Translations under genes and position numbers: made by a program | In this document: piece after piece, positions 5,937 through 33,155 of the stretch | Numbering within the stretch: the first letter of the stretch is position 1 | Layout of the letters: each line of letters begins with the position of its first letter | Notes under the pieces: generated by a model | Databases searched by the model: none | Told to the model about the DNA's origin: nothing | The model's input: the letters and a program-made list of their open reading frames with translations, nothing else | NCBI GenBank assembly: GCA_000934665.2 | Contig: KZ537961.1 | Span: forward strand, 186,001-219,249 | Direction of reading: 5' to 3' | Length of the DNA stretch: 33,249 nt | Origin: Catajapyx aquilonaris | Taxonomy: Eukaryota

Positions 5937-6433
5937 CGTCTGTAACTCAGCTTAGTACTCCAAAGCCATAGTTCTGAAACTAAATTAACTTCATTGTAAT
6001 GCGGTTAAACCCAATCTCCCCAGATGATATTACCTGTCAGCGGATATCAGGTGTGGACACATCCAGCCAATCAATCCATATGGCCACCTGTTCCCCTCTC
6101 CCGATGCGACCTTGCCCTGCTCTTCTCCCCACACTTCCCTTGCCCTTCCCTCCCTCCCAACTAATTTACCAGCCGACTAATTCCCACCAGACAATCAGAC
6201 ATCGTTAGCCCCACTTCCTAATTAAATCACACGCAAAAAAAATGTCCGCAGACACAGGGAGTAGGCCCCGTCACAATGAGTCACAAATGAAACCGTGGCC
6301 TACTGCCTGTGCTCAAAGCGGGAATTTTCAAAAGCATATCTAAAGAACAATATATTTGCTGTAAAATGAAAATCCATATGTTATTTACTGGCCTGCATTT
6401 CCCCACGTTTACAAAATGCTCCGTTGTGACACA

Positions 6434-8939
6434 TCATGCGGTATGATGATTTCTATTCTGTCGTTCAAACACAATGACGAGCTCGCAGTGCTTCGTGTGT
6501 GGGAACATGTCAACTGGGACGGCAAGTCTGGGGACAAATGGAAGGGCCTTTTGCTTGGAATCTTGTTTGCACAGTTGGACAAAGTTCTGCATGGCCACTC
6601 CCTCAGGTTTACACGACACGTACACCAGCCGCTGAATCTGTGGGCAGTTTCGCAGGGTCTGCACCACGTGTGGATCTGATAATAGAATGTGAGTTTGTAG
6701 TCAGTCATGGTCTATTTGGTACAATGTGGCAGTACTTACGCAGACCGGCACGTGCAGGATTAACAATGGCGACTATATCCGGTGATGATTCCAGATCCTT
6801 TAATAGTCTTGGAATCTTCTGTGCTCCAAGTAAAAAATAATTTGCATTAGCATAAAACTACCATTATTTTCACTTTCACGACTTACATCTTCAGCCCTCC
6901 CTCTAACAAACTCCACATTGTCAATTCCGTTTGCTTCCGCATTGGCCCATGCATCCCTAACTGCATCTGCCACAACCTCCACTCCGGCGCAACCCCTCAC
7001 ATATGATGACATGTAGAGACTGATAGTTCCAGTTCCGCAGCAGACATCCAGCACCGAGCTCATGCGGGTGACTCCAGACAGACCCAGAACTGTTTTGTAC
7101 AGTACACGAGCAGCCATTGTGTTCACCTGGAAGAAGGAGTCTGGAGAGATTCGGAACTTCAGGTGGTCCAGCTCCTCCACCAAGTAGGGATCGCCATGAA
7201 GCAGCTCGAATGGAGCCTGCTCATGAGTGCAACGGGTGTGTCGGCTGGAAAAAAATACACATACGCTCAGATGAAATTCCAGAATCTAGCATGCCATGCA
7301 CTCATTCTGAAACCATCGCACTAATTAATAGTGACGATTTTATAAAATCAAATTAAATTGAAATCTCAAGTACTGGTATTGGTAAGCCAATATGAGCACA
7401 GCGAGGGTTTTTCTAGTACTGTGGTTAAAAAGTTATACCCTACCAGGCTTGGAAGTAAAGTGATGTGATTCCTGGCTCTTGTTCTAGGAAGTGCTCCTTC
7501 AGCTTCTCCTTTTCCTCCTCAATTCCCTCTCTCGTCATGTCTTGAGGATGCATGACCACAACAGCCATGATGTCACCCTTCTCGTTTGACCTCACAATCA
7601 GGTTTCGCCAGTGTCCCCCATCATCAAGACGGTCACATGCAGGAAGAGGTGACGCTTGGATGTATTTCTCATAAATCTGAAACAAGGCAAGTTAAAATTT
7701 TATGCTTGTCTTGCAGTTTTATAAGACCACGGTACCTTACAGTATGCGGATAATTCATTATTTAATAATAATAATTCATAATTCATACCCCGTTATCAGC
7801 CTATCGGCTCTTAAGGGGCGAAGTTTTGTTTTGCCTGGAACTCTTTGCTTTCATTTTACTGCGCTTTTTTGGGGGGATAGGATAGGGACGGAATGAAGCG
7901 GCTGTGGCCTATTAATTATGGAAGCAACTCCAGAATTTTCCTGGAAGAACCGTGGGAAACCACAGAAAACCACGGTCAGAGTTGCCGGCCCCGGGATTCG
8001 AACCCAGGACCTCCCGATTAGCAGTCGGACGCCTTATCCACTATGACAACCTGCTTCGGTGCACTAATTCATTACTTATAACAAGAGTAAAGCGCTTCAA
8101 GTGAGCTCACATGTGCCATGCGCTTATGTGATTCCCGTGTGTTGATCAACTGGTCCGGCCTCACGCAAAGTGGATTCCCAGTGGCAGGACTGCCAGTGAA
8201 GAACCCGACAGTCTTTGGGTTTCCATCAGGACCACAGCGAACACTGAATTCATCCTTATTGCGGTATGCTTCTGTAACAGGCTGAAATATGAAGTAAAGT
8301 AGGATTAATATCAAGCTCCGACATTTCAAGCGACTCCTAAAAGAACTCAAAATGAGTTATATCATCAAATATTTAGCAGCTGAGGCATATATGCACTTTC
8401 ATAGACAAACACTATGAATACTAGATCTGGGAACTAGCCCTTTCCAGTGCCAGCGACATACCGAGGGTTGTATCTGTGCCACACGGCAGGGCATTTCCTT
8501 CTTCCATGTTTTGATAGGCGTCTTGAGTCGCCTAAGATGACCGGTGAGTTCCTTCAAAACGTCGCAGCTCTGCTGATACTTGAGCTCCAGCTGCTCCTTA
8601 TACGGCATACTCCACAACGGAGTGACCACATCCCGCAGCATCCCCTCCGCCTCCTCCTCCGACACCCTTTGCTGAGATTCATTCTTCAGGTCCCCCTCGT
8701 CCACATGCACCTCGTCCTGATCCCCATGCTCATGTGAGACTGGGTATGTCCTATGAAAATACACATGTGTTACACCAACTGCTCACCCATAGGATGTCGT
8801 GCAATATTGTGTGCACATACCTGGCCCGTATTCCTCTGAGTGTCCTGGCCGGTTGAAACACCACTGTTGAGCGGACAAGTGTCAATCTGAAGAGGAAGTA
8901 ACCTCGCCGCATGGCCGTGGGTACTGTGGGCGCCGCCAT
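6434..8939 (-). CDS. TRMT2B: tRNA (uracil-5-)-methyltransferase, TRMT2B-like (probably mitochondrial), 7 exons, ~496 aa
   Basis: Exons 8939-8821, 8750-8462, 8281-8111, 7676-7444, 7244-6887, 6818-6740 and 6675-6434 join in frame (1491 nt). Motifs: YRNKDEF, FRISPDSFFQVN, SAM motif VLDVCCGTGTI, VNPARAGL (TRMT2B-type; TRMT2A has DPPRAGL), catalytic YVSCK, PVDMFPHTKHCE. The Arg-rich, acid-free N-terminus resembles a mitochondrial presequence. Confidence 0.88.
7883..8060 (-). mobile_element. tRNA-derived SINE in TRMT2B intron 3
   Basis: Minus strand begins with a tRNA-like head: A-box-like TGTCATAGTGG and B-box GGTTCGAATCCC. There is no acceptor stem. A non-tRNA body follows (GGTTTTCTGTGGTTTCCC...TAGGCCACAGCCGCTTCATTCC). 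Confidence 0.7.
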
Positions 8940-9137: not shown

Positions 9138-10579
9138 ATGAAGGAATTTTGGATTTGCGTTTGTATTCTTCTTCTGCTGCCAGGTGAGTTTCGTTTCACA
9201 ACAAGCTGTTGAATTTTTGTCTCACTGACAGTGAGTGAAAGCTTTTCAATATCTACACACATTTCTCTTCCTTAATAGGTAGTATAATGGATGATTGGAC
9301 TTGGACTTATTCAGGGGAAAAGGGTAAGTGCTTTTCAAGTGATGTTGAAGTTAAGGCAGCAGAATTTAACCTGAAAGATAACTTCCATTGTGTCCTACAC
9401 ATTCAGGTCCTAAGAACTGGGTGGAAACGTGCTCTGAGAGAGATGTTGCTCAGCAATCGCCAATTAACATCATAGCTAGCAGTACTGATGAAAGTGTAGA
9501 CGGTGTCCCTCTCATACAGTTTTCACCTGCGTATTCTGTGGCGATTAACGTGACATTATATAATGCAGATAAATTTGGTGAGTTTATTTTAGATTGGACT
9601 TTAACTTTTTTGAATAGATAACAAAATAAACTTCGCGTTGTTCCCCATATCGATGCAGTGAAACTGTCGTTTCCTGACTCTAAGCCTGAAGCTACTGATA
9701 ACCCCAATGCCCTATATGTCACTATGAAAGGAGTAGGTGTCCACTACTTGGACTACATAGGATTTCACTGGGGTTCCAAATACGCGGATGGCAGCGAACA
9801 TAAGATTGACTCTGAGAGGTACGATTTCGCCTTGTTTCACTGCAATTTGGGCGTCCAATCCAAGCAGCCGACTCAAATGGATACGTGCTTTATTTCAGCT
9901 ATTCAATGGAGGTGCAATTTATACATAAGCCTTCAAAACCATCACAAAAGGCAAGCGAGTTTAACTTAGCCATCCTCTTCAAGGTAATGAGATGTTTGTT
10001 ACTACTGCACTGCTACAAACCACGTAAGTGACGCTAATATTTTTACATCTGTTACAGGCTGGATTGTATGATAATCCGAAGTACTCACCAATTACGAACG
10101 AACTTCCCCGTATCAAACAACCGAACACCTTCATCCACTTCAAGTTGAGACGTCTGAGGGACATACTTCCAAAGGATTTGGAAACGTTTTTTTACTACGA
10201 AGGGACACAGACCATTCCCCCGTGCAATCCAAGGGTCATGTGGGTTGTGTTCAAAGAGGTGCTGCCAATATCCGAATATCAGGTATTTCAAGTACAGTAT
10301 TCGACTGTTAATACCAGCCTCTCATATTATGACCCTGGTTCTCAGATACACCAGTTATGGTCTCTTCTTGATGCAAATCATAGGGGAATGCATATCGCTC
10401 GCAGAAATGTCCAGCAGAGAATTAACATAAAGCCCGTTCAATACAGAAACGACCCAAACAATCCAAACAACCCAAACAACCCCAAAAATAACCCATACAA
10501 CTCAGCTTGTGTCAACAGTATCAGCATAATGTGCATGGGGCTATCATTTGCTTTTTGGATCATTTTGTACAATAAATAA
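9138..10579 (+). CDS. Alpha-carbonic anhydrase-related protein 1 (signal peptide, hydrophobic C-tail, predicted acatalytic), 7 exons, ~321 aa
   Basis: Exons 9138-9183, 9279-9323, 9407-9577, 9659-9818, 9899-9983, 10058-10282 and 10346-10579 join in frame. Alpha-CA motifs: WTYSG..GPKNW, QSPINI, FHWG...GSEHKID, YSMEVQFIH, FFYYEGTQTIPPC...VMWVVF, RNVQ. AATAAA lies at the stop. Confidence 0.88.
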
Positions 10580-10710: not shown

Positions 10711-12084
10711 ATGAAGCAGTTATTGTGGACTTACACCTGTATTATTCTTCTGCTGCCAGCCTTAGGTGAGTTTGGTTTCAACAATACAGTATTATTCAAT
10801 TTGATACAACCAAGCCATTTTTATACTCTAATAGATAGTGAAACTGTGACATGGACTTATTCAGGAAAAACTGGTAAATGCTTTTACAAGTCATGTTAAA
10901 GTTAAGCAACAAAATTTAATTTTAAGGTTAACTTCTGAATACACTGTATCCTACACACACAGGCATGGCCAACTGGGGAGGAGAGTGCAATAAGAAACAA
11001 AAGGATAATTATTACTCGCCAATTGACATCATAGTTAACGAAACTACCACACCTGAATTCCCTCTCCCACCTCTAACGTTTTCAAATGCTTATTCTGTGA
11101 TACGCAACGTGACATTAACCAACAATGGAAATACTGGTGCGTATAATTTCTTATCTCTTCATGCTTATCTATTTTGTTGTTGTTGTTGTTGTAATTACTG
11201 AATTGGTAAAGGCTCTATGAAAATAACAATGAAACCCTTCCAGTTAATCTGAGGTTTCCTGATGATGACGCCGAGATGGTAAACGTCACTATGGAAGATG
11301 AGGGTACCTTCTACCTAGTCAGCATAATCTTCCACTGGGGGCACACATACACGGAAGGAAGTGAACATCATATTGACTCTAAGGAGTAAGCTTTTGCCAA
11401 TTTGTTTCACTGCAAGAATTTGGGAATCCAATCCAATTATATTGGCAACATTGCTTTCAGGTATGCAATGGAGGTGCAATTCATACATGAGCCATCTCAA
11501 CATAAATCAAACACAAAAGAGTTTAACCTTGCAGTCCTCTTCGAGGTAATACATAATAAAATATGTTCGATATAAACCCTAAAAACGACACTTATTTTAC
11601 ACCTATTACAGGTTGGATTGAAGGACAATCCGAATTACGCACCCATTATAAATCAACTTCATAAAGTCATACAACCTAATTCATCTGTCCACTTCAACTT
11701 GACTAGTCTGAAGGACTTACTTCCCAAAAATGTAGACGCATTTTTTTTCTACCAAGGTACCCAAACTATTCCTCCGTGCACTCCAGGGGTCAAGTGGGTT
11801 GTGTTCACAGAGGCAGTGCAAATATCCGAAATGCAGGTACAGTACTTCAATTAGCCCACAGTATTTGTCTGCCAATACTAACTTCTCATATTATGACCCC
11901 CAATTTGCAGAGGTTCAACTTATGGAAACTTTTGGACGCAAATAATGAGAAGATGAGCACTGCTCGCAGAGGTGTCATGCCAAGAATTGACATGAGGTCC
12001 GTCCAATACAGAAGCTCAACTTGTGTCAACAGTGTCTGCATAATGTGCTTGTGGCTGTCATTTGCTTTTTGGGTCATTTTGTAG
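10711..12084 (+). CDS. Alpha-carbonic anhydrase-related protein 2 (tandem paralog, predicted acatalytic), 7 exons, ~297 aa
   Basis: Exons 10711-10765, 10835-10873, 10963-11136, 11244-11385, 11461-11545, 11612-11836 and 11911-12084 have the same intron phases as copy 1. Motifs: WTYSG, YSPIDI, IIFHWG...GSEHHID, YAMEVQFIH, FFFYQGTQTIPPC...VKWVVF; hydrophobic C-tail. Confidence 0.88.
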
Positions 12085-12799: not shown

Positions 12800-13208
12800 A
12801 TGGATTCTAAGGTGATTTTTCACACTTTCGTGGTAAGGTATTGTTGGGACGTATTAACATATTTTGATTGTTCTGCAGATATTGCTGGTCCTCGTTGTGC
12901 TGGGAGTGGTGACGTGTGTGTCAGCTGGAGGTCATATCAACTACAAGTACGGGTTTTCCATCAAGGGCAAGCATGGGTCAGCCCAGGTGGAGGCTGGTGC
13001 AGATGACCACAAGTGGGGTTACTATGTGAACAACCAACATAAGGATGGGGTCAGCTACATCAAGCAGAGTGGGGACAACACTCACCACGGAGGATTCGAG
13101 GGAGGGTTCGGAGGTGGTGCTGGTGGGGCTGGTGGGGCTGGTGGGGCTGGTGGGGCTGGTGGTGCCGGTGGTGGTTTCGGTCTCGGAGGAGGATTCGGAG
13201 GGTTTTAA
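12800..13208 (+). CDS. Secreted glycine-rich protein, copy A (~113 aa, 2 exons)
   Basis: Exon 1 12800-12811 (MDSK), GT-AG intron, exon 2 12879-13208. Signal peptide ILLVLVVLGVVTCVSA, a His/Tyr/Lys-containing domain and a (GGA)n/GGF tail. TATA upstream, AATAAA downstream, and three paralogs in the window. Confidence 0.88.
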
Positions 13209-15786: not shown

Positions 15787-16500
15787 CAGGGTGGGGCAAA
15801 AGTCATGGGCTGGTTTAAACGACGCAGCATGGCGTAAGTAACGAACGATTATAAATATATTTTTAAATTCACTACACAGAGAAATATTATGCCATTTATG
15901 GATCAAGGTCCCAAAAAGTCACTTCTTGAAAACAACACCGGATAGACGTCCACCTTTGCAGGCAACACGTATTCCTCCAAACGTCGGACGAAACCCTTCA
16001 TAACGCGCTCCAGCATGTCCATTGGAATCGGAAATAAAAAAGGGATGGGGGTAAGAAAAACCAGTGCCGCATTTGACTCGTTTGCGCTATCGGTACCGTG
16101 ATACCGGGGATAGGTACGCGTTCGCCGCAAGAAAAATACCAAATTTTTTAAACCCAGGCCTGGAACTCGCATGGGAGTCGGAAAACAGACTAACTTTACG
16201 GGGGTGTCCAGAGGGTGGGGAGTCAAAGACACCGCTCCCATTCGTCACTCGTTACTCGTATCGGATTCCTTACACCTTGTATCGTCATGGATTCGCCAGG
16301 CGCACCTACCACCCGAGTTTGGTGCACCTGCGATGCTCCGTTTGGCGTACAGCGAGGCTCAGAGCAACAAGTGCATAAGTGCCAAGTCATTTTTCAGTCC
16401 TCTTCGTCTGTTTTCCGATTCCGAGGTTCCAATATAATCGTTCGTTACTTTCGCCATGCTCCGTCGTTTAAACCAGCCCATGACTTTTGCCCCACCCTTG
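15787..16500 (-). mobile_element. Non-autonomous Tc1/mariner element with transposase C-terminal remnant
   Basis: TA on both sides (15785-86, 16501-02) and ~65-bp TIRs beginning CAGGGTGGGGCAAAAGTCATGGG. The minus-strand remnant IPMDMLERVMKGFVRRLEE/CVACKGGRLSGVVFKK* (frameshifted) resembles a Tc1/mariner transposase C-terminus. The paralogous site at ~21180-21190 lacks the element. Confidence 0.88.
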
Positions 16501-17044
16501 TACTTATATTGAGAGTCCTGCTCAAAGTTTTAGCTTTTCAAAATCGTCCTCAAAGGAGATGTTCAATTTTGCCCTGGGGACATAGAATTCGTCAATTTAT
16601 CTTGAATAACAACCATTTGGTCACAGTACAATATTATTGACTATTTTTCTCATTGAGGAGAAACATTGTCAATAATATGTACTGTGACATTTTTTTACTG
16701 ACTATGACTTCACACAATATCCGAATAAATCCTAATGTGACCACCATTATGAGCCTTAGTGCTAGACTTGTCCAATGGCTTTCAATACATCTGTACAGCT
16801 CTAGTTCTGACTGATAGTGAGTAGAAAGAATGGGATAAGTACGTACTGCGTACCAGTTAAGTGCCAGTGTACAGTTCACTTGAATCCACGTGCTCGGTCC
16901 TCATCGCATCAGTGAGGCTAGTTCTGCTATTCCGCACATATATTTGGCAAGTAGACTGTATAAAAGTGGCTTACTCCAAAGCTCAGTATCAGTCGCTCAA
17001 GAGCACTACTACAGACAAGAGCAAGCATCAAGAATCGCATCACC

Positions 17045-17419
17045 ATGGACGCAAAGGTAATTGAAGTAATAGATTGTTTAATCGCACTCACTGTTTCATG
17101 TCAAATGCAGATACTGCTGGTCCTCGTTGTGCTGGGAGTGGTGGCGTGTGTGTCAGGAGGAGGTCACACCAACTACAAGTACGGGTTTTCCACAAAGGGC
17201 AAGTACGGGGCAGCCCAGGTGGAGGCTGGTGCAGATGACCACAAGTGGGGTTTCTCAGTCAACAACCACCACAAGGATGGGGTCAGCTACATCAAGCAGA
17301 GTGGGGACAACACTCACCACGGAGGATCCGAGGGAGGGTTCGGAGGTGGGGCTGGAGGGGCTGGCGGAGCTGGAGGTGTCGGGGGAGGGTTCGGAGGGGG
17401 ATTTGGAGTGGGATTTTAA
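17045..17419 (+). CDS. Secreted glycine-rich protein, copy B (~106 aa, 2 exons)
   Basis: TATAAAAG at 16959; exon 1 17045-17056 (MDAK), 54-nt GT-AG intron, exon 2 17111-17419; AATAAA at ~17460. Confidence 0.88.
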   Translation: MDAKVIEVIDCLIALTVSCQMQILLVLVVLGVVACVSGGGHTNYKYGFSTKGKYGAAQVEAGADDHKWGFSVNNHHKDGVSYIKQSGDNTHHGGSEGGFGGGAGGAGGAGGVGGGFGGGFGVGF

Positions 17420-18163
17420 ATGTCCTTTGTATATTATACTACTTGTACAGGTGGTTTTTAATAAATGGATATAAAAGAATTTCAGTTTTTACGCGTAAAT
17501 TACTTACGCAGTAGGCTACCATTCACGAGGTAGGCCTACACACAATATTTAAATAACACGCTTCCAATCTATGGAACTCTATTTATACTGCTTTATAGGC
17601 ATTTAACATCAGTGTCACGAGTCAAGCCATCAAATTGAGATTTGATGATGTCATTCCCTTTGGACAATGATAGTAAAGTGCATACGGTACAGCATATGGC
17701 ATATAGTTTCATGCCACAAAATGTGTTCTTTTGGGAAGAAAATCCCTATGGTCCCATGGTGTAAACTTTGACGCATTTCATTTCCAGCAAAATCGCCGCA
17801 GTAATATTATTACGAGGAAGATCTAAGCAATTTTTGCAGATGGAGGCTCCATCCTTGAATATTGATGTAGATGACACAGGAAAATAGAGTAAGCATATCA
17901 AAATCATACACTGTATACCCTTTATCATATATGCTAGGGAGAACCTAAGTTCGGTGTCGTTCAGTGTTATAATTATAGCAGTTTCACATAATGTAACTGT
18001 ATGGTATTCATTACAAACACAGCCTCAAACTGTTACTTGCCAGCTGCATTTTAGTTCTCCATGCAATATCACATGTGCAGAATAATGTAGAGATTGTAGA
18101 CTGTAAGACGTCTTGTTGCATGAGCACCTGAGAGCAGGTCAGGAAGCGTATCCCATCCAAGGC

Positions 18164-18235
18164 GCGATGGTGGTGTAGTGGTCAGCATAGTTGCCTTCCA
18201 AGCAGTTGATCCGGGTTCGATTCCCGGCCATCGCA
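18164..18235 (+). tRNA. tRNA-Gly (anticodon TCC)
   Basis: 72 nt; acceptor stem GCGATGG/CCATCGC + discriminator A; anticodon loop CTTCCAA; T-arm CCGGG-TTCGATT-CCCGG; oligo-T terminator at 18241-18245. It matches the metazoan tRNA-Gly-TCC pattern. Confidence 0.95.
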
Positions 18236-18240
18236 CTCTC

Positions 18241-18515
18241 TTTTTAGACTTTTTCTTATCGAAAAAAAGTCTTATAGAACGGCTCGACTGTTTGTCCGTC
18301 CGTCTGTCTGTGGACAGGTATCAGGGCCTTAACCGAAAGAGAGAGCAACAAACGGTTTTCATATTCATATTAAGCGTGACCAAAATATATTTCATGGTCA
18401 ACATCCGGTGACCCGCCACTTACTGCTTTCCGGGTTCACTCTATCCGCACAAGTCTACTTTACGGGCGGGTTATCGCTGGATTTCGACATTAGTTCCTGT
18501 GGATTCCTAACCAAT
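18241..18515 (+). mobile_element. DINE-1/HINE (Helentron-derived)-like element, 5' part
   Basis: Starts in a T-run with a short inverted repeat AGACTTTTT...AAAAAGTCT, then a (GTCY)n microsatellite TGTCCGTCCGTCTGTCTGT. This is the architecture typical of DINE-like elements. The 3' limit is uncertain. Confidence 0.5.
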
Positions 18516-19117: not shown

Positions 19118-19409
19118 CCTGCCGAGGGATTACGCACCGGGTGGCCACTTGAGATCGCTACGAGACATTTCCCAAGGCTATCATGTGGCGACCCTACCGG
19201 ACTAAGGCTGAACTTTACAGGTACGAAGGGCAGGGCTACATTGGGGGGCCCAACATGGCCGCTGGCGGCCATATTGGGCCAGCATGTAGCCCTCCCCTTC
19301 GTACCTGTAAAGTTCAGCCTTATAGTCCGGTAGGGTCGCCACATGATAGCCTTGGGAAATGTCTTGTAGCGATCTCAAGTGGCCACCCGGTGCGTAATCC
19401 TTCGGCAGG
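19118..19409. repeat. GC-rich near-perfect palindrome (~145-bp arms, 2-nt loop)
   Basis: CCTGCCGAGGGATTACGCACCGGGTGGCCACTTGAGATCGC... is mirrored by ...GCGATCTCAAGTGGCCACCCGGTGCGTAATCCTTCGGCAGG; centre ATGGCCGC-TG-GCGGCCAT. Confidence 0.95.
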
Positions 19410-19916: not shown

Positions 19917-20290
19917 ATGGATTCCAAGGTACCGTTCATTCCAACCCAAGAAGCTCCTTGTTTATTAACGTGGATATTCTTGATTGTAACGTGCAGATAC
20001 TGGTGGTCCTCGTTGTGCTGGGAGTGGTGGCGTGTGTGTCAGGAGGAGGTCACACCAACTACAAGTACGGGTTTTCCACAAAGGGCAAGTACGGGGCAGC
20101 CCAGGTGGAGGCTGGTGCAGATGACCACAAGTGGGGTTTCTCAGTCAACAACCACCACAAGGATGGGGTCAGCTACATCAAGCAGAGTGGGGACAACACT
20201 CACCACGGAGGGTTCGGAGGTGGGGCTGGTGGTGCCGGAGGTGCCGGAGGTGGTTTCGGTGGGGGTTTCGGGCTGGGAGGAGGATTCTGA
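19917..20290 (+). CDS. Secreted glycine-rich protein, copy C (~101 aa, 2 exons)
   Basis: TATAAAAG at 19825; exon 1 19917-19928 (MDSK), exon 2 19997-20290. It ends at TGA three codons before the TAA used in copy A. Confidence 0.85.
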
Positions 20291-20950: not shown

Positions 20951-21763
20951 ATGTCCCCCTTATTTACAAGAAAGTACGAGACTATGACAAAAATCCGTGA
21001 AGGAGTTAACAGCAATAATGTCAAAAATAATCACAGAGGTGAATATTTTCTAAAATCTATACGTTTCACAAACAATTAAAAAAAATCCTGTTGCGAATCA
21101 AGAAAAAATCTTCATATTTTACTGATGCAGATGATTGCACAATAAAACTGCTTTCAAAAAGAAACAAATGTATTAGGCCTTTAGAATTGAGAGTCCTACT
21201 CCGCTTTTTCAGCTTTTCAAAATCGTCCTCAAAGACGATGTTCAATTTTGCCCTGATACTACTATACTATACAGTTGACCTTGCTTGCGTGCGTCAGAAT
21301 AACCAAATTTGTATAATAAATAATAAAATAATTATTATAAGCTTATATCTGTAGATCTGGGCAAGAAGTAATAACAATCTGAGACCTGCCTGACATCTGT
21401 GCCCCGCGTCACTTACTCTGTAGAGTACAACACACGTCATTGTTATACATAGCTTTTTCGGATTCTCAATTGTGATGATCAGTGATTGTTGATTAGGTGA
21501 AGAAAGAAAAGAGACGGAACATGGCACTTGTGGAATTCTCAAAGAAATGTCCAAATGGATAATTATGTTCCCATGTTTTATTATTTGCTGGATTCTACTC
21601 GTATAAGGGCAGTATATTACCAAGAAAAAAATGACATGTCTTGATTTGCATATACAGTATAGGCATGCAGACAAATTATTTTTATTCACGGTATACATTG
21701 TGTCAATATGTTAATGTAACAATAGCATATAGCATCAAGTGCAATAGAAGAGTCCCAAAGACG

Positions 21764-24700
21764 TCACACGCTGTGCTTGAGGTTACTAATGTGTGACGTA
21801 TATTTGTCGTCGAGATATTTCAAGAAATTCGTCACTCGTTGCCCCTTCTTTTCGTCACATCTATAATTCTCTCCTTCGTCTTCTAATTTCTTCAGGTAAG
21901 GCTGGAAATGCATTGTAGTATAAATAATTGTTAGCAGTAGCTACTAGTTGCACCAGAACCACTGTGTCAATGTGTTAAATTAAGTATGTCAAAAAAGTTA
22001 TAATGTATACTTGCGCTACAGTAAAAATCATATTTAAGATGGGTCATGCTTGCTTATTGTATCATTGCTTTAGGTATCCTACATTCCTAGCTACCCGTTT
22101 TTAGGGCAATAAGTTGTGATGCATTGATTTATGGATGGATATACCTTCAGTTGGTCAGCATGACGTTGAAACATCAACATTCCGCCGACAAAATTCCAGA
22201 AGTCGTAGTTTGGCCACAACACCTTGTCAAATGCAATGACACTGTATGCACACTGGAACAAGAAGCTAATATTATGGGTAAATTTGCTAATAGCGCAATA
22301 ATGAGCACCAAGCTTCACTGAAAAATGCACGTGTATACTGCACGTTTCAAACTGAGCAAGAATTACCTGCCAGAGCATGAAGTTGGAGAACCTCATTTCT
22401 CCAGAGGTTCTGACGATCATGTCAACTGGAGGTAAGTCCGAAGTTTGAAGACACTGCTCCATCAGTGCCTCTGACACGTCATCTGGTTCGATCAGGCCCT
22501 TCCTCACTCCTTCCTTCAGCTGGTTTATGGCGTAGGTTATGTCATCTCGGCCTAAAAAAGCAAAGATAATAATATCTATTCCCTGAATAACGTAGTATTC
22601 TAAATTCTGACTAAGGGAATTTGGATATTATGATCCCGTTAATTGCTCACCAGCATAAGGCATGGCCACAGTGTAGACATGCTTATTACAATGACGAGTT
22701 CTCTCCATCAGCTCCCCAGCCAAAACTCGTAGCTTCTGTGGAAATAACTCCAATCGTCCAATAACCCGAAATTGGATTCCATCCTTGATCATGAAATCTC
22801 TGTAAAGGTGAACAATATCCCAAAATAAACTAGTCGTGGCACTAGGCAGTAATTAATACATTATTAAAATAAATAGCTAATTAAACTAGTCGTGGCACTA
22901 GGCAGTAATTAATGCAGTATTAAAATGAATAGCTAATTAACTTCAGTCCAACTACTAACTTAGCAGTAACTAGTAGTGGGACTAAGTAGTACCCGTAACT
23001 AAGATAATATTAAAATAAACAGTCAATTAACTGTGTTAGCAGTACGTATTCGTGGCACTACGAGTAACTAATTTCTATATCTATAAATAAGGAAGTTTGT
23101 CAGTTTGTTTGTCCTTTATAGAAATCCAGGGGAAGGCCCCTACACCGCCTTAAACTAGCATATCGGGGGTTACATTTTCCAAGGAATCTAACGCCGCATG
23201 TTTCAGCTTCCGCAAATGAACCTAACTCCCACAACACGCATATTCCCGAATCTTCTCTCTTCTCGGGCCTTAACAATTAACTTACATAAAAATCAAATAA
23301 CAATATACCGTATCAATTCACATTCCCATGGAAATGTCCTTATGCAACTTCAATACCTAGCAAATTAAACCATCGACGGTAAATTCAACGCATGCACCAA
23401 TTACGCTAATAATTGGCCACCTCACGTGAGTTCGTATCGTATATGGTCATTCCGGGATTTCGTGGGATTAGAAAGTAGACTTCCAGACAAAAATAAATAC
23501 AATAAAATAATACAGTATTTACTAATATTACTCCGTGTTGAGAAAATTTCTTCCACCATGCATCTGTACGTCTGTACGTACTGTACATTTCTAGAGTTCT
23601 TCAAAGCAAACATATGGAACGAGATGGAGGTGTGAAGTGGGGTTGGGGGGTCAAGGGGTCAAAAATGCAGGGGGAAAAAACACACGGCTGTGCAGTCTTT
23701 TCCTGGGCCAACTCCATCCGCAATCCTCTTTTTACACATCCAATCAGAATATCTATCTGTGTCGACTACACTATAAGACAAGCAGGTAATCTACAGTATC
23801 ACTGAGAGTGACAAACCTTGGCTTATTGCAACTTATAAGGCCTATTTTAAGACATATCGAGTTTCGAGTGTACGGAAGGGAAATTTTTACAACTTTCCCT
23901 TCCATACACTCGAAACTCGATATGTCTTAAAATAGGCCTTATAAGTTGCAATAAGCCAAGGTTTGTCACTCTCTGTGATACTGTAGATTTCCTGCTTGTC
24001 TCATAGCGTATGTAGTCGACACAGATATTCTGATTGGATGTGTAAAAAGAGGAATGCAGATGGAGTTGGACCAGGAAAAGACTGCACAGCCATGTGTTTT
24101 CCCCTGTGCATTTTTGACCCTTTGACCCTCCAACTCCACTTCACACCCCCACCTCGTTCCATATGTTTGCTCTGAAGAAATTTAGAAATGTACGTACAGA
24201 TCTCGGTACAGATGCATGGTGGGTATGGAGAACTTCGAGTTATAGCAATTCGAGTTAGGGAAGTTTATTTCCTATTATTTTACATTGTAACCAACCAAGC
24301 TCATCATTTTCTTCGACTTATAGAGAACTTCGACTTAGGGAAGTTCGACTTATGGGAGTTTTACTGATATTTTATTGTACTTATTTTCGTCTGGAAGTCT
24401 AGCTGCAAATCCCACGAAATCCCGGAATGACCATACGATACGAACTCACGTGAGGTGGCCAATTATTAGCGTAATTGGTGCATGCGTTGAATTTACCGTC
24501 GATGGTTTAATTTGCTAGGTATTGAAGTTGCATAAGGGCATTTCCATGGGAATGTGAATTGATACGGTATATTGTTATTTGATGTTTATGTAAGTTAATA
24601 ATTGTTGAGACCCGTGAAGTGAGAAGATTCGGGAATATGCGTGTTGTGGGAGTTACAGTAGGTTCATTTTCGGAAGCTGAAACATGCGGCGTTAGATTCC

Positions 24701-26307
24701 TTGGAAAATGTAACCCCCGACATGCTAATTTAAGGCGGTGTAGGGGCCTTCCCCTGGATTTCTAAAAGGGACAAACAAACTGACAAACTTCCTTATTTAT
24801 AGATATAGAGATTCCCTGAATAACATATGATTCTGAATTCTGACTAATCCTTAAAAATACTAAGGGAATTTGGATATTATGATCCCGTTAATTGCTCACC
24901 AGCATAAGGCATGGCCACAGTGTAGACATGCTTATTACAATGACGAGTTTTCTCCATCAGCTCCCCAGCCAAAACTCGTAGCTTCTGTGGAAATAATTCC
25001 AAACTTCCAATAACCCGAAATTGGATTCCATCCTTGATCATGAAATCTCTGTCAAGGTGAACAATATCCCAAAATAATTGCACTTGTGGCGGTGATGTAT
25101 AGTACCATACATGTATGGTACCATAGCGGTCTTCTAATATTATTCATGAAATACACATAGAGTTATAGAGTCTCTAAAAACATTGTTCTACTGTGTATTA
25201 AAGTATTAAAAGGTTTTTAAAAATGATTTTTATCGTACTATTGTCCAGATGTGATTTCTTTCACCAAATTACGAGCTGTTCGAGCAACATTTCGGCCAAC
25301 TTGATTCTGAATGACCCCTAGTCGACCGTTCCAAACTTTAAAACGATATAATTATATCTCAAAGGGTGTGCCTTACAGCACTATTCTAAGTGCTGATTTG
25401 GAATCAGCGGGGGGCGGGGGGAGACCTTATATANTAAACACATACGGTATTATTACCTGAGAAATAATACCCTTGCCGAACAATGCAATTTACACCACTC
25501 AAATATATTCATAAGCAAAAATAAATAAATCTCTGCCAAAGAATTTGTCACCTTCAATCACCTAATGCCTGCAGGTAATAAACTATTTAATTACAACCGT
25601 ATACCGTATAGAGTCCGCTTTCTACTTCTTTTCCTATGAAATCCGACGCCAACGCAACAAGAAGCTTACTCACATCTCTTCCAAATATTGCGTCATGGCA
25701 TCTTCAAACACCTTAATCAGTCCTTCAACTTCCTCTTGAGCTCTTCCAAAATTATCCAGGCTGAATGCAAAAGTTGTCACAGCGTAGACACCTAAGAATT
25801 TGCACCATCCTAGCACTTTTTTCATTTTCACACCACTGGAATTACAGTAGAAATAAGCAAATAACTCAGTCAACATAGGGTGTATTTAACTGTCCCCATC
25901 CACCTCTCCGTATTGACATGCTGACATATGAAAACATTTATGCTAAGCTTAAAATGTATAACGTATTTAGTACTATCGTATTTGCAGTCACATTATTTTC
26001 CATATTGTAACTCACCCATCTGTGTGGCCTTGCATGATCGGAAGTCCTTTGGACTTGGCGTATCGTCTGTTTCCATCCATGATGTACCCAACATGACGAG
26101 GTACACTTCCTTGCTTTATTATGTCCAAGACATAGCGCTGCAGCCACGAGGGGTTGTAATACGACTTAGGTCGGTAGTCCTAAAATCATGTGTGTAAGTA
26201 AGACATAATTATGTGCAGTACAATATGATGGAAATGATTCTGACCATCTGGCATGTTATGAACAATGAGTCGGAAACTATCGGCAAAGTTAGGTGTCACC
26301 TTACCAT
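21764..26307 (-). CDS. DHDDS: cis-prenyltransferase / dehydrodolichyl diphosphate synthase-like (DHDDS-like), ~302 aa, with duplicated exon 4
   Basis: Exons 26307-26305 (ATG only), 26179-26016, 25835-25674, [25048-24900 or 22799-22651], 22551-22367, 22252-22145 and 21901-21764 join in frame (909 nt with one exon-4 copy). Motifs: [75 protein letters not shown] at ~26404-26397 and AATAAA at ~21686-21681. Orthology versus paralogy is not established. Confidence 0.85.
22828..23072. repeat. ~56-bp tandem minisatellite (2 good + degenerate copies)
   Basis: AACTAGTCGTGGCACTAGGCAGTAATTAAT...ATTAAAAT.AATAGCTAATTA at 22828 and 22884; degenerate echoes to ~23072. Confidence 0.8.
23074..24809. repeat. 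1.7-kb palindrome (~810-bp left arm, 10-nt loop)
   Basis: 23074-23883 is the reverse complement of 23894-24809; loop TTTTTACAAC. Scattered mismatches, plus one ~145-nt foreign segment in the right arm. Confidence 0.96.
24223..24366. mobile_element. MITE fragment nested in right palindrome arm
   Basis: Segment absent from the left arm, built of TTCGA(G/C)TTA subrepeats. It ends GGGAGTTTTACTG (reverse complement CAGTAAAACTCCC, a Tc1/pogo-like terminus). Confidence 0.6.
25283..25318. repeat. Solo copy of the terminus found inside the 29.6-30.4 kb foldback
   Basis: AGCAACATTTCGGCCAACTTGATTCTGAATGACCC is nearly the reverse complement of GGGTCATTCCGAATCAAGTAGGCCGAAATGTTGCT at ~29684-29718. Confidence 0.7.
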
Positions 26308-26735
26308 CGTCTGTTATTACTAGCCGCACTTCCTAAGAGAATGATCCTGAGAGGATGAAAGGAATGTGAATCAAGCTGAGACAATCATGCTGGCTCTTTA
26401 TATAGGTACGCCTAGCCTAAAGTGTACAATACACCTGACAAAAGGTGGAGGATGAGTGGAAAGATATGCGTCAGTATTATCTAACTAATGACTTTGGTAG
26501 TGCATATTAACAGTTTTAAGAAATAATCATATGCAATGACGCAAGTTGAGAGAAAAAATATGTTGGCAGAGATTTCCCATGGGAAATCTCTCCCTGTGTA
26601 CACATATAAGTTTCCACAGCGCCACACCACCTTTTGCTTGTTACAACAGCATGTTACGGTGTTATGAAGTAGCTACTTCATAACACCGTAATCACCCCTC
26701 AAATCGCAGTCGCTCAAATCGATTTGAGGGGCCAA

Positions 26736-26798
26736 GATGTACCCAACACTTCCTTGCTTTGTCCAGGACAAAGCGCTCCAACCACTTGGAAGTAATAC
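26736..26798 (-). pseudogene. Degenerate fragment of DHDDS-like exon 2
   Basis: GATGTACCCAACACTTCCTTGCTTTGTCCAGGACAAAGCGCTCCAACCAC...GTAATAC aligns, with small deletions, to 26081-26162 (GATGTACCCAACATGACGAGGTACACTTCCTTGCTTTATTATGTCCAAGACATAGCGCTGCAGCCAC...GTAATAC). Confidence 0.75.
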
Positions 26799-27158
26799 AT
26801 GGCTGATGAGGACTGCCTCTGTGCAGTTGTCTGTGGGAGACTTACAGTGCGGTCAAAAGTTTATGCATAATGGTGACACGCCTGAAACCAACTACTATAT
26901 GAATAACATCTGATAAGAAATTCATCCAACCAGCTTTTTCCATTTTAATAACGCCGCCTTAAATATCATACGCCAGGGGTTACTTCATACGAGGAATTTA
27001 ATGCCGAATAGCTCAAATCCTGAAAATGAGCCTGAAAGTTACACTTGCACCTTGCACATCTCCCAATCACCCTATACTGTCTTGCGGACCCGGGCATTTC
27101 GTCTAGAGAGAAAAAACTTGACGAGAAAAATAAAGGTGTGATGTGCGCGTGAGGCGGA

Positions 27159-29570: not shown

Positions 29571-30436
29571 ATGTTGCTTAGGTCACTGACAACTCATAAT
29601 TGACCATTCATTTTGTCTGGGATTTGTTTTTGACCTTGGGGCAGGTACAGTCAAAAACCCAAATTACTCGAAGTACTGCATACGGGTCATTCCGAATCAA
29701 GTAGGCCGAAATGTTGCTAGACCATCTCGGAATTTGCTGAAAAATAACACCGCTGTACATGACTATACCATAACACGTCATGTCAAGTTTCAGAGAAATT
29801 ACGCAATACCGTTGGGAGGGAAAAAATGGAAATGAGGCCCTTTTGGTTAATTTTTTCGGTTAGTGAAAATAGTCCAACACCAATAAACAATACATCAAAT
29901 GAAAGAGAATCACGAGGGAAATGCGTATATGGAATTTGTTCTCCTCTCAAATGTAACCAGATAATTTGCAAATTCTTGGACATGTGACCGAGCACGTGAC
30001 CGATGGAATACCACCCACATTTTTCTGGTCACACCTTAGAGGAAAACTAATTCAATAGACGCATTCCCCTCGTGTTCCCCTTTAATTTGATGCATTGCTT
30101 ATTGGGGTTTGACCACTTTCACTAACCTAAAAAATTATTCAAATGGACCTCATTTCCGGTATTTTCCTAAATTTCGAGATTTTTTCCCTCCCAACGGTAT
30201 TGCGTAATTTGGTTGAAACTTGACATGACGTGTTACGGCATAGTCATGTACAGTACAGCGGTGATATTTTTCAGCAAATTCCGAGATGGTCTAGCAACAT
30301 TTCGGCCTACTTGATTCGGAATGGTATGCAGTATTTCGAGGAATTTGGATTTTTGACTGAAACTGCCCCAAGCCCAAAAACAAATCCCAGACAAAATGAA
30401 TGGCCCATTATGAGTAACCAGTGACCTCAGCAACAT
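29571..30436. mobile_element. ~870-bp foldback / MITE-like inverted repeat
   Basis: ATGTTGCTTAGGTCACTG... is mirrored by ...CAGTGACCTCAGCAACAT. The arms stay alignable for ~390 bp with indels; unpaired centre ~29967-30020. Confidence 0.88.
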
Positions 30437-30777
30437 CTGCATTCTGGTGAAGCTTGAGGAATTAATCCCGGGGTCCCTGGTCACTTCCCGGACTTCAAAC
30501 CCAGAAGCAAAACAACGAATCAAAGGGTAAGCAAGCCGCAGGTACTGTTTCCTAATTGATTCGGCGAATGTCCCGTATACTTGACATAAGCCTGTGCCAG
30601 TGTACAGTTCACTTGAATCCACGTGCTAGGTCCTCATCGCATCAATGAGGCTAGTTCGGCAATTCTGAACAGCAATTTGGCAAGAAAACAGTATAAAAGC
30701 TGATTACTCCAAGGATCAGTATCAGTCGCTCAAGCGCACTTCTTCAGGCAAGAGCAACCATCAAGAATCGCATCATC

Positions 30778-31143
30778 ATGGACGCAAAGGTAATTGAAGT
30801 AATGCATTGTTTAATCGCACTCACTGTTTCATGTCAAATGCAGATACTGCTGGTCCTCGTTGTGCTGGGAGTGGTGGCGTGTGTGTCAGGAGGAGGTCAC
30901 ACCAACTACAAGTACGGGTTTTCCACAAAGGGCAAGTACGGGGCAGCCCAGGTGGAGGCTGGTGCAGATGACCACAAGTGGGGTTTCTCAGTCAACAACC
31001 ACCACAAGGATGGGGTCAGCTACATCAAGCAGAGTGGGGACAACACTCACCACGGAGGATTCGAGGGAGGGTTCGGAGGTGGGGCTGGTGGTGCTGGTGG
31101 TGCCGGAGGTGGTTTCGGAGGGGGATTTGGAGGGGGATTTTAA
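30778..31143 (+). CDS. Secreted glycine-rich protein, copy D (~103 aa, 2 exons)
   Basis: TATAAAAG at 30692; exon 1 30778-30789 (MDAK), 54-nt intron, exon 2 30844-31143; 31 of 103 residues are Gly; AATAAA at ~31185. Confidence 0.88.
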   Translation: MDAKVIEVMHCLIALTVSCQMQILLVLVVLGVVACVSGGGHTNYKYGFSTKGKYGAAQVEAGADDHKWGFSVNNHHKDGVSYIKQSGDNTHHGGFEGGFGGGAGGAGGAGGGFGGGFGGGF

Positions 31144-31790
31144 ATGTCATTTGTACTTGTATGTTATACTACAACGTGGTTCTTAATAAATGCGTATAAA
31201 ATAGTTTCAGTTTTTAAATTCTTTATAAAATACAGTACCAGCATTCACGAGGTAGGCCTACACCCAATATTTAAATAACACGTTTCCAATCTATGAAACT
31301 CTATTTATACTGCTTTATAGACATTTAACAGTGTCACGAATCAAGCCATCAAATTGAGATTTGATGATGTCATTCCCTTTGGACAGTGATAATACAGTGC
31401 ATACGGTGCAGCATATAGTTTCATGCCACAAAATGTGTGCTTTTGGGAAGAAAATCCTTATGGTCCCATGGTATAAACTTTGGCGCATTTCATTTCCATC
31501 AAAATCGCCGCAGTAATATTATTAAGGGGAAGATCTAAACAATTATTGCAGATGGAGGCTGCATCCTTGAATACCGATGTAGATGACACAGGAAAATTGA
31601 GTAAGCATATCAAAATCAAATATAGATACACTGTATACCCTCTATCATATTATGTTATAAGGAGAACCAAAGTTCGGTGTCGTTCAGTGTGTAACTGTAT
31701 GGTATTCACGATAAACACAGCTTGAAACTGTTACTTGCCAGCTTGCATTTTAGTTCTCCATGCATAGCACATGTGCAGAATAATGTAGGT

Positions 31791-32732
31791 GGGTGATTCT
31801 CCAAAAACCTACCATTTTCAAAGCAAGAATTAATTAATTTCAAAACTTGTTTTCAAAATCTGGAAAAATTCTCACTTGCTCTATATGAGGTCACAAATCA
31901 GGGAAAATTATTGAGAACTAATTCTGATATTCTAATACTATAGGAGAGTGAATATTTCCAGGAGTTCGGGAGCCAGAAGAATGACCTATGCATGCAATAG
32001 AATTAATATCACGGTCCAGAACAAACATTGTCCATGAAGATTTCGGTGGGTTCAAGAAGACCCTTCATTCCATGGAATCACAGTTATTTCAAAACATTTA
32101 AACTATTTTGTGGCATAGAAAAATGAGCCAGGAGTGTGAACTTTTTATTTCCGGGAGTTTGGGAGCCAGACGAATTGACCTTTGGATGCATTAGGATCGA
32201 TTAGGATTATAATATCAAGGTCCAGAACAAATGTTGACTCTGGACATTTCTGTGGGTTAAAGAAGACCCTTCATTCCATGGAATCACAGTTATTTCAAAA
32301 TATTTAAGCTATTTTGTGACATAGAAAAATGAGCCAGGAGTGTGAACTTTTTATTTCCGGGAAAACTCGGGACACACTTTGGAGTGATGCAGCAAGGTCA
32401 TGTCAAATGAATAAATCGTTTTAAAAATGTTGTTTTATACCTGCAACTATGTGCAATTTAATTATAGTATTGAAACTTGTCTAATGTTAATAATTAAATT
32501 GTAAGAAAATATAGCATGCTTTAAAATGAGATCGGGACATGCCAAGAATAGTGATTTTAGGCCTTTGACATTTTTTGTAGTAAAACTTAATTTAATATTT
32601 TTCTTTGTTTTCATGGGGATGGCTAGGTGTCAACTGCGTCTCCAAATGTTTAATAAATCAACTCTCTCAGTCAAGCCATTTTTGAGTTATTATGCTGGGA
32701 CATGGTATTGGTAAGTTTTTGGAGAATCACCC
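31791..32732. mobile_element. Non-autonomous TIR element with internal ~200-bp tandem duplication
   Basis: 24-bp TIRs GGGTGATTCTCCAAAAACCTACCA / TGGTAAGTTTTTGGAGAATCACCC. It is absent at the paralogous sites (~18090 and ~29015). Internal repeat ~31955-32155 vs ~32150-32360. Confidence 0.88.
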
Positions 32733-32798
32733 GCTGGTAAGACTTTCATGTTGCATGAGCACCTGAGAGCAGGTCAGGAAGCGTGTCCCATCCAAGGC

Positions 32799-32870
32799 GC
32801 GATGGTGGTGTAGTGGTCAGCATAGTTGCCTTCCAAGCAGTTGATCCGGGTTCGATTCCCGGCCATCGCA
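32799..32870 (+). tRNA. tRNA-Gly (anticodon TCC), second copy
   Basis: Identical 72-nt sequence to 18164-18235; TTTT at 32877-32880. Confidence 0.95.
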
Positions 32871-32876
32871 CTCTCC

Positions 32877-33155
32877 TTTTAGACTTTTTCTTATCGAAAA
32901 AAAGCCTTATAGGACGGCTCGACTGTTTGTCCGTCTGTCTGTCTGTGGACAGGTATCAGGGCCTAAACCGAAAGAGAGAGCAACAAACGGTTTTCATAAT
33001 TATTCATATTAAGCGTGACCAAAATATATTTCATGGTCAACATCCGGTGCCCCGCCACTTGCGGTTTTCCGGGTTCACTCTATCCGCACAAGTCTACGTT
33101 ATACGGGCGGGTTATCGTCGGATTTCGACATTAGTTCCCGTGGATTCCTAACCAA
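32877..33155 (+). mobile_element. DINE-1/HINE-like element, duplicate copy
   Basis: Paralog of 18241-18515 with the same T-run, short inverted repeat and GTCT microsatellite. Confidence 0.48.

Follow-up and report, generated by a model that had tools for sequence, protein, structure and literature searches.

Does an internal exon that occurs twice in a gene of Catajapyx aquilonaris mark the beginning of a pair of mutually exclusive exons, and by what route did the second copy arise? The stretch of DNA analysed here (GCA_000934665.2, contig KZ537961.1, positions 186,001–219,249 of the forward strand; 33,249 nt, hereafter the window, whose own numbering is used throughout) carries on its minus strand a gene that appears, from its predicted protein, to encode a cis-prenyltransferase (DHDDS-type, dolichol synthesis), and exon 4 of this gene is found on both sides of about 2 kb of repeat DNA. 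A sequence-only reading of the locus had proposed that the two copies can be used only one at a time, that a Helitron-like insert had given rise to them, and that a hairpin between them may govern the choice of exon. We tentatively favour a real, probably heterozygous duplication that was produced by a single rearrangement on the assembled haplotype, and we find the downstream copy joined to both neighbouring exons in a spliced contig.

For this analysis, contigs from four of five available sequencing runs were placed on window positions 21000–27000. X1–X3 are DNA runs from one sample, and X5, whose kind is not on record, is termed RNA-like solely because four of its joints skip intron-sized stretches with GT..AG ends. 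Contig depths are k-mer means per contig, summed over contigs, and according to the tool's own warning they are not copy numbers. Between 1,422 and 1,699 contigs per DNA run fit this region, 267–354 of which fit two places. The DNA runs have no contig cover over 25422–25823, and this hole was not used as evidence.

Two copies of exon 4 lie in a direct duplication

Exon 4 occurs at 25048–24900 (4a) and, about 2 kb away, at 22799–22651 (4b), as is borne out by alignment. Both copies are 149 nt long and have intact AG/GT sites (...cag before and gtgagc after each). Between them, 4 of 149 bases are substituted (positions 44, 46, 52, and 99 of the exon), corresponding to AGT versus CGA (Ser/Arg, two bases), GAA versus GAG (silent), and AAA versus AGA (Lys/Arg), which confirms the VIGSLE/VIGRLE and MEKTR/MERTR differences that had been read from the sequence. 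Flanking intron is duplicated as well, again as proposed. The exon copies lie inside a direct duplication of 267 and 251 bp, which consists of an ungapped block of 219 nt with 98% identity (22610–22828 compared with 24859–25077), a block of 37 nt with 89% identity (22578–22614 compared with 24811–24847), and a 16-nt indel between the two. The similarity of the two exons and of their surroundings is far beyond chance. The duplication and the sequence that it encloses comprise the following features:

24811–25077, minus strand: duplication copy a, 267 bp, with exon 4a between the last 29 nt of intron 3 and the initial 89 nt of intron 4, the latter including the 16-nt indel
24900–25048, minus strand: exon 4a, the upstream copy (Ser/Lys variant), matching PF01255 positions 78–123, found in no spliced contig
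22578–22828, minus strand: duplication copy b, 251 bp, from direct-repeat search and alignment
22651–22799, minus strand: exon 4b, the downstream copy (Arg/Arg variant), matching PF01255 positions 78–123, the copy found in a spliced contig
23070–24813, no strand assigned: imperfect palindrome of 1,744 bp with arms 23070–23886 and 23891–24010...24813, from a many-copy non-coding repeat family
24224–24366, no strand assigned: extra piece of ~143 bp, very high copy, present in one arm only, from arm alignment and DNA-run contigs
22829–23069, no strand assigned: tandem block T, 241 bp, with a 56-nt unit in about two good copies and further degenerate ones

Exon 3 ends with ...GAG AT at 25674, exon 4 is made up of 1 + 147 + 1 bases, and exon 5 starts with GC at 22551. 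When joined in silico, both 3-4a-5 and 3-4b-5 give an open frame, 3-4a-4b-5 reaches a stop after three codons (...PYAEIS, then the stop), and skipping of both exon 4 copies likewise leads to an early stop. Translation of the joined exons thus upholds the earlier argument from phase, according to which a premature stop is avoided only when one copy, and not both or neither, is used. The Ser/Arg and Lys/Arg sites are occupied by Asp and Ala/Asp, respectively, in human DHDDS and H. pylori UPPS, and neither exon 4 copy holds a conserved state at these two residues. A protein search with exon 4b for close relatives, by which the Ser/Arg and Lys/Arg changes could be polarised, scored 0 of 75 candidates.

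The copies enclose a palindromic, many-copy repeat insert

The insert is many-copy repeat DNA and consists of a palindrome and an array. The palindrome spans 23070–24813 (1,744 nt) when aligned with itself and has a centre of only 4 nt (23887–23890). All seven inverted-repeat pairs of the region 21000–27000 tile this segment (89–99% identity per ungapped block), and in gapped alignments the arms share 88–94% identity, being 6–12% apart when indels are included. The ~143-bp piece found in one arm may be a nested insertion or a replaced segment. It is made of 15-nt units (CTTCGACTTA...-like), is the most repeated sequence of the stretch, and has the look of a short, highly abundant element that is nested within the arm. 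Inside it, at position 24289, the same variant is present in 66–73 distinct contigs per DNA run, the peak within the insert, and 11–20 contigs have loose ends at 24224 and 24366, with diverse flanks on the right side. Each 56-nt unit of the adjoining array holds a short hairpin motif (CTAGT-6 nt-ACTAG), and a longer 56-nt array without an adjoining palindrome occurs in a DNA contig (joint from 23072 to 22948, 21 other letters).

Four further opposite-strand joints were located in DNA or X5 contigs (23286 to 24564, 23629 to 24162, 23734 to 24047, and 23825 to 24142, the last in X5), and in 3–5 contigs per DNA run the left arm can be followed to 23892, where it continues into other sequence. These joints and read-through contigs indicate that the family makes foldbacks with varied turning points, and that the turning point seen here is not the natural end of the element. 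None of the seven open reading frames (ORFs) of the insert (71–97 amino acids) reaches the Pfam cut-off, the one weak and unrelated match being Tag1_M (19.6 bits, compared with a cut-off of 27). An Rfam search returned seven insert matches at E-values up to 0.1, none of them at gathering score; they are microRNA-precursor look-alikes on both strands of the palindrome centre and reflect the hairpin shape alone. Exact words taken from the repeat had no match among metagenome contigs.

Foldback-shaped repeats are unusually frequent in the window. Whole-length palindromes of other families are located at 29571–30436 (866 bp), 19118–19409 (292 bp), and 1976–2455 (480 bp), and a fragment of the first of these lies in intron 3 of the DHDDS-type gene (25242–25320). 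An element with 66-nt terminal inverted repeats at 15788–16498 belongs to a family unrelated to the insert.

Exon 4b is the copy found in a spliced contig

Record 26 of X5, a contig of 346 nt with a depth of 4.3, leads from exon 3 at 25674 to 22799, skipping 2,874 nt with CT..AC ends, covers 22650–22799 with no other letter, and then joins 22550 in exon 5. The contig thus reads exon 3-exon 4b-exon 5, agrees with 4b at each of the four diagnostic sites, and crosses over 4a. Of the junctions that alternative use of the two copies would produce, exon 3-4b and 4b-5 are therefore seen, in this one X5 contig, and joints with 4a are not: none of the four spliced X5 joints touches 4a, a negative result that comes from one run and from one contig over this part. 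Contigs drop rare forms, and a doubly included transcript would be degraded. At 22499 in exon 5, X5 has the window letter and the DNA-run contigs have the other variant, which hints weakly that the chromosome behind the X5 transcript resembles the assembled one.

The proposed hairpin between the copies exists as a very stable predicted fold. The 4a-4b intron (2,100 nt) folds at −1403 kcal/mol with 743 arm-to-arm pairs, compared with about −520 kcal/mol for three mononucleotide shuffles. The palindrome pairs with itself and lies wholly within the 4a-4b intron, in the fold of which we see no docking/selector competition. We infer that the effect of the hairpin would be a shorter 4a-4b intron and not an enforced exon choice; the 4a donor would come to within ~360 nt of the 4b acceptor, which would favour the harmful double inclusion. 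It could also turn the pre-mRNA into a double-stranded RNA substrate.

Mutually exclusive use of the two copies, as claimed by the sequence-only reading, is not borne out by these data, the only transcript evidence being the one exon 3-4b-exon 5 contig. We consider it improbable that 4a and 4b are a working pair, with one copy per transcript yielding a Ser/Lys or an Arg/Arg isoform, nonsense-mediated decay eliminating transcripts that contain both, and the hairpin as a possible source of bias. In favour of such a pair, AG/GT sites, length, and phases are all kept, with each copy alone giving an open frame and both together an early stop; 4a also retains its whole native upstream intron, and tandem exon duplication is accepted as the source of exon pairs of this kind, as in exons 5a/5b of SCN-alpha (PMC12772994). 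Yet 4a takes part in none of the four X5 joints and is skipped by the single contig that spans this part of the message, the self-pairing palindrome offers no docking/selector arrangement, and the two amino-acid changes fall at sites where neither copy holds a conserved state. Joint inclusion is barred by frame incompatibility, and an intron of 2,100 nt imposes no steric block. It is quite improbable, too, that we see a segregating allele of an essential dolichol-pathway gene that is an exclusive exon pair at its birth, with both copies spliced in carriers and the hairpin setting the 4a:4b ratio through intron length or through double-stranded RNA editing or silencing.

Origin of the duplication

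The insert is located exactly at the duplication junction and stands there alone, between the end of copy a (...cagggaat) and the start of copy b (ttattttggg). Both native junctions, from intron 3 into copy a and from copy b into intron 4, are intact, and the outer junctions overlap by AAT (intron 4/palindrome) and TTA (array/intron 3). Because the insert sits at the exact junction, the native junctions are preserved, and the ends share ~3 nt, we read the structure as the outcome of one event. In a BLAST search of the insert against the 33-kb window, all 10 rows fell inside 22823–24813 and no copy was found elsewhere in the window. In the proposed event, ~2 kb of repeat DNA, consisting of a foldback copy of the many-copy non-coding element and a piece of the 56-nt array, would have entered the DHDDS-type gene, and 251 bp (exon 4 plus 29 nt of the preceding intron 3 and ~73–89 nt of the following intron 4) would have been duplicated on both sides of it. 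The effect would be that of an insertion with a very long target-site-like duplication, brought about by a staggered break and subsequent fill-in or by replicative template switching, with ~3 nt of microhomology at each outer junction. Exon 4b would then be the copy that enters the mRNA, and 4a a young extra exon that may either be skipped or be joined with 4b, leading to a premature stop and presumably to nonsense-mediated decay. Heterozygosity or polymorphism of the variant is probable.

Two other sources of the structure were rejected. A read-level palindrome chimera is at odds with arms that differ by 6–12% with indels, with the extra ~143 bp in one arm, and with flanks that are direct rather than inverted; retroposition would have left an A-run, which is present at neither end of the insert.

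A number of observations weigh against a single real event. The main rival is an assembly artefact, in which each chromosome has one exon 4, and two haplotypes or paralogues that differ at 4 bases, each with its own repeat insertion next to the exon, were strung together and the space between them filled from the many copies of the element. We regard this as less likely than a real duplication but still possible. The palindrome arms are further apart (6–12%) than the exon copies (2–3%), which does not fit a single foldback copying at the time of duplication; two different family members may have supplied the arms, or else the interior was assembled unfaithfully. The structure fits a first haplotype with intron 3, 4a, and the element and a second one with the array, 4b, and intron 4. 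The space between the copies is wholly many-copy repeat that a short-read assembly might misfill, the 2–3% divergence of the copies is within the allelic range of the same sample (two contigs at 25876–26033 differ at 10 positions over 158 nt), and an N is located at 25434, 357 nt upstream of the duplication boundary. This pattern matches a false heterotype duplication with wrong gap filling, for which PMC9516828 gives haploid depth of both copies, and 4a is at haploid-like depth (its bin has a depth of 11.8–26.3 in the DNA runs). Among the contigs listed, none bridges the novel junctions 24810/24811 and 22828/22829. X1–X3 probably represent the assembly's own heterozygous individual and would then not be independent: at several places, contigs of haploid-like depth are identical to the window, among them several low-depth ones of 150–210 nt with second-allele contigs alongside. 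The duplication may be absent from the individual that gave X5, and an ordinary exon 3-4-5 mRNA would then also align on 4b. There are, in addition, signs of a paralogue. Two X5 contigs contain the 3' part of exon 5 and continue beyond 22367 into ~150 nt of a different exon-6-like sequence (starting SAYSFVWFEK), which is about two-thirds identical to the window exon 6 over 30 letters and is absent from the 33-kb window in a tblastn search. An expressed paralogue is thus probably located elsewhere in the genome, and it may supply a third exon-4 type and inflate depths; exon bins are 2–3 times deeper than intron bins in the DNA runs. Against the artefact, no N separates the copies, the sole N of the window being the one in intron 3 at 25434. 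The 4b-specific contig (22614–22782, containing the four diagnostic sites) is not at half the depth of its neighbour, the exon-5 contig (65.3 compared with 61.9 in X2, and 114 compared with 100.8 in X3), a comparison that is weakened by resting on summed contig k-mer means and not on copy numbers. Three exon-4 types are present in the one sample, the third being a b-type that carries T at 22748 (one differing letter over 169 nt). An artefact would moreover need two independent repeat insertions within 251 bp on opposite haplotypes, and both far junctions would have to be missing from the assembly. As the depth of 4b is close to that of exon 5, the 4a bin is lower, and a third type is present, there is a hint that 4a is on one haplotype only. 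Between 4a and the intermediate b-type with T there are three non-synonymous and no synonymous changes, too few for a selection test.

A Helitron origin, as suggested by the sequence-only reading, fares worse. The letters in question are present, as the insert allows a reading of 5'-TC...CTAG-3' with an A and a T of the host adjoining, but its junctions are ambiguous by 1–3 nt. According to PMC4067079, canonical Helitrons have a 5' TC, a 3' CTRR, a 16–20-nt palindrome ~11 bp from the 3' end, and a target between A and T that is not duplicated. Here the insert ends abut host sites 251 bp apart, the host DNA between which is duplicated, instead of a single A-T site. The 5' TC is the tip of an arm of the 1.74-kb palindrome, the other arm of which has the same tip, and CTAG recurs in the good units of the 56-nt array. 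The last 30 nt hold only CTAGT-6 nt-ACTAG (a 5-bp stem that includes the terminal CTAG) and no 16–20-nt palindrome. A Rep/helicase remnant is lacking (0 of 7 insert ORFs above the Pfam cut-off), and no copy of the element is found outside the duplication. The insert thus departs from a Helitron in its 3' end, in its target site, in its inverted repeats, and in its coding content. Gene capture by Helitrons, furthermore, puts the captured piece inside the element and not on both sides of it. In its tandem array, with short palindromes close to one end, the insert is reminiscent of non-autonomous Helentrons (HINEs), for which the same source describes central tandem repeats, a 5–10-bp 3' palindrome, and a preference for T-rich targets, and for the HINE/DINE-1 type 12–15-bp subterminal inverted repeats, a TT target, and optional tandem repeats (PMC4067079). 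A tandem array, a 5-bp palindrome, and a T-rich site at the intron 3 junction are present here, no subterminal repeats of that size were delimited from this one copy, and it is possible that the array part is a Helentron-type non-autonomous element. That a rolling-circle element of Helitron or Helentron type copied the exon by read-through, or that two such elements recombined, remains very improbable. Unequal recombination between two elements flanking the exon is contradicted by the BLAST result, with 10 of 10 rows inside the duplication boundaries, as such a crossover would leave a copy outside each boundary. Reversed-ends transposition was rejected: in Ac/hAT elements each direct repeat is initiated by the transposon (element-segment-element-segment, according to PMC3744419), and no element copy is located at or beyond 25078 or 22577. 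We likewise give very little credence to an origin in two steps, with a plain 251-bp tandem duplication followed later by insertion of the array and then of the foldback. AT flanks the foldback on both sides and might be a 2-bp target duplication, and the many-copy foldback family may be mobile, but a 2-bp match is expected by chance in 1 in 16 cases, and the later insertion would have to strike the duplication junction to the base.

The DHDDS-type gene and its neighbours

All five exon translations that were compared with PF01255 (Prenyltransf) in a Pfam profile search match it in collinear order, two of them with scores above the 27-bit cut-off (56.5 and 42.7) and the short exons with 23.4–24.7 bits. 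The best matches of exon 4b in the PDB are human DHDDS chains (6w2l_A and 6z1n_A), with weak E-values of 0.14–0.15 that are explained by the query length of only 49 residues. A protein search with exon 5 scored 223 of 248 candidates and returned no close relative (best match 51% identity over the full query, or 64% over 74% of it), and the matches with a source name are bacterial undecaprenyl/polyprenyl diphosphate synthases. The exons other than 4a and 4b are:

26016–26179, minus strand: exon 2, from ORF and splice-site reading, matching PF01255 positions 1–23, with an X5 contig over 26016–26132
25674–25835, minus strand: exon 3, matching PF01255 positions 26–72 (42.7 bits), with an X5 joint from 22799 to 25674
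22367–22551, minus strand: exon 5, matching PF01255 positions 126–183 (56.5 bits), with X5 joints
22145–22252, minus strand: exon 6, with joints from 22252 to 22367 and from 21901 to 22145 in X5 record 25
21679–21901, minus strand: last coding exon (exon 7), from X5 record 25, with the stop codon from 21766 and the contig end at 21679

Exon 2 contains no ATG and the start-codon exon was not located, which places the latter farther upstream.

The DHDDS-type gene is bracketed by a tandem cluster of a small plus-strand gene, four copies of which (12867–13208, 17099–17419, 19985–20290, and 30832–31143) are 82–91% identical over 294 nt and encode a start that resembles a signal peptide, a conserved block (HTNYKYGFSTKGKYGAAQVEAGADDHKWGF...), and a tail rich in Gly (GGFGGGAGGAGG); their flanks at 16861–18462 and 30594–33101 are 92–97% identical. 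ORF translations alone suggest a piece of a major-facilitator/SLC17-like transporter at 3866–5951 (minus strand), an S-adenosylmethionine-dependent RNA methyltransferase-like exon at 6800–7285 (minus strand), and tandem carbonic-anhydrase-like exons at 10028–10579 and 11576–12084 (plus strand), which are ~76% identical over 245 nt and are followed by an Asn-Pro repeat.

Comparison with known systems

If the duplication is real, it is a very young (2–3%) and possibly polymorphic exon duplication in the gene of a conserved, single-function enzyme, and it bears an unusual birth mark, a foldback-repeat insert flanked by a duplication that runs to hundreds of bases. It would represent the assumed but rarely caught first step toward mutually exclusive exons, with use of 4a so far without evidence, and carriers would allow one to study how the spliceosome treats two equal exons before regulation has evolved, and what effect the hairpin has. 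If it is an artefact, the locus illustrates that allele-like exon copies around repeat-filled sequence can mimic exon gain in a heterozygous genome.

With the false heterotype duplications described in PMC9516828 the locus shares near-identical copies, allele-like single-nucleotide differences, one copy at haploid-like depth, and an interior that is poorly supportable, and it differs from them in having no N between the copies, in a 4b that is not at half depth, and in a third exon-4 type. Ac/hAT reversed-ends duplications, as portrayed in PMC3744419, likewise have host DNA in direct repeats and transposon sequence where these meet; in contrast to them, our insert locus has no element at the outer boundary. 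The bare letters TC and CTAG at the ends, with an A and a T beside them, recall canonical Helitrons, unlike the palindromic body, the want of a proper 3' palindrome, the ends at different host sites, the 251-bp duplication, and the missing coding remnant observed here.

Tandem exon duplication gives rise to mutually exclusive exons, and frame incompatibility together with nonsense-mediated decay is one route by which exclusivity is enforced. As in such tandem-duplicated exons, 4a and 4b match in length (149 nt, which is not divisible by 3) and in phase, and their joint inclusion leads to an early stop; unlike them, only one copy is found in RNA, the copies are very young (4 of 149 bases differ) and possibly confined to one haplotype, and 2 kb of repeat lie between them. 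Foldback, or long-inverted-repeat, non-autonomous elements are known from Drosophila (FB) and in forms resembling miniature inverted-repeat transposable elements. Although our insert differs from these in having no clear target-site duplication, it resembles them in its two inverted arms with a tiny spacer, in being non-coding, in its many copies, and in the varying arm lengths of those other copies.

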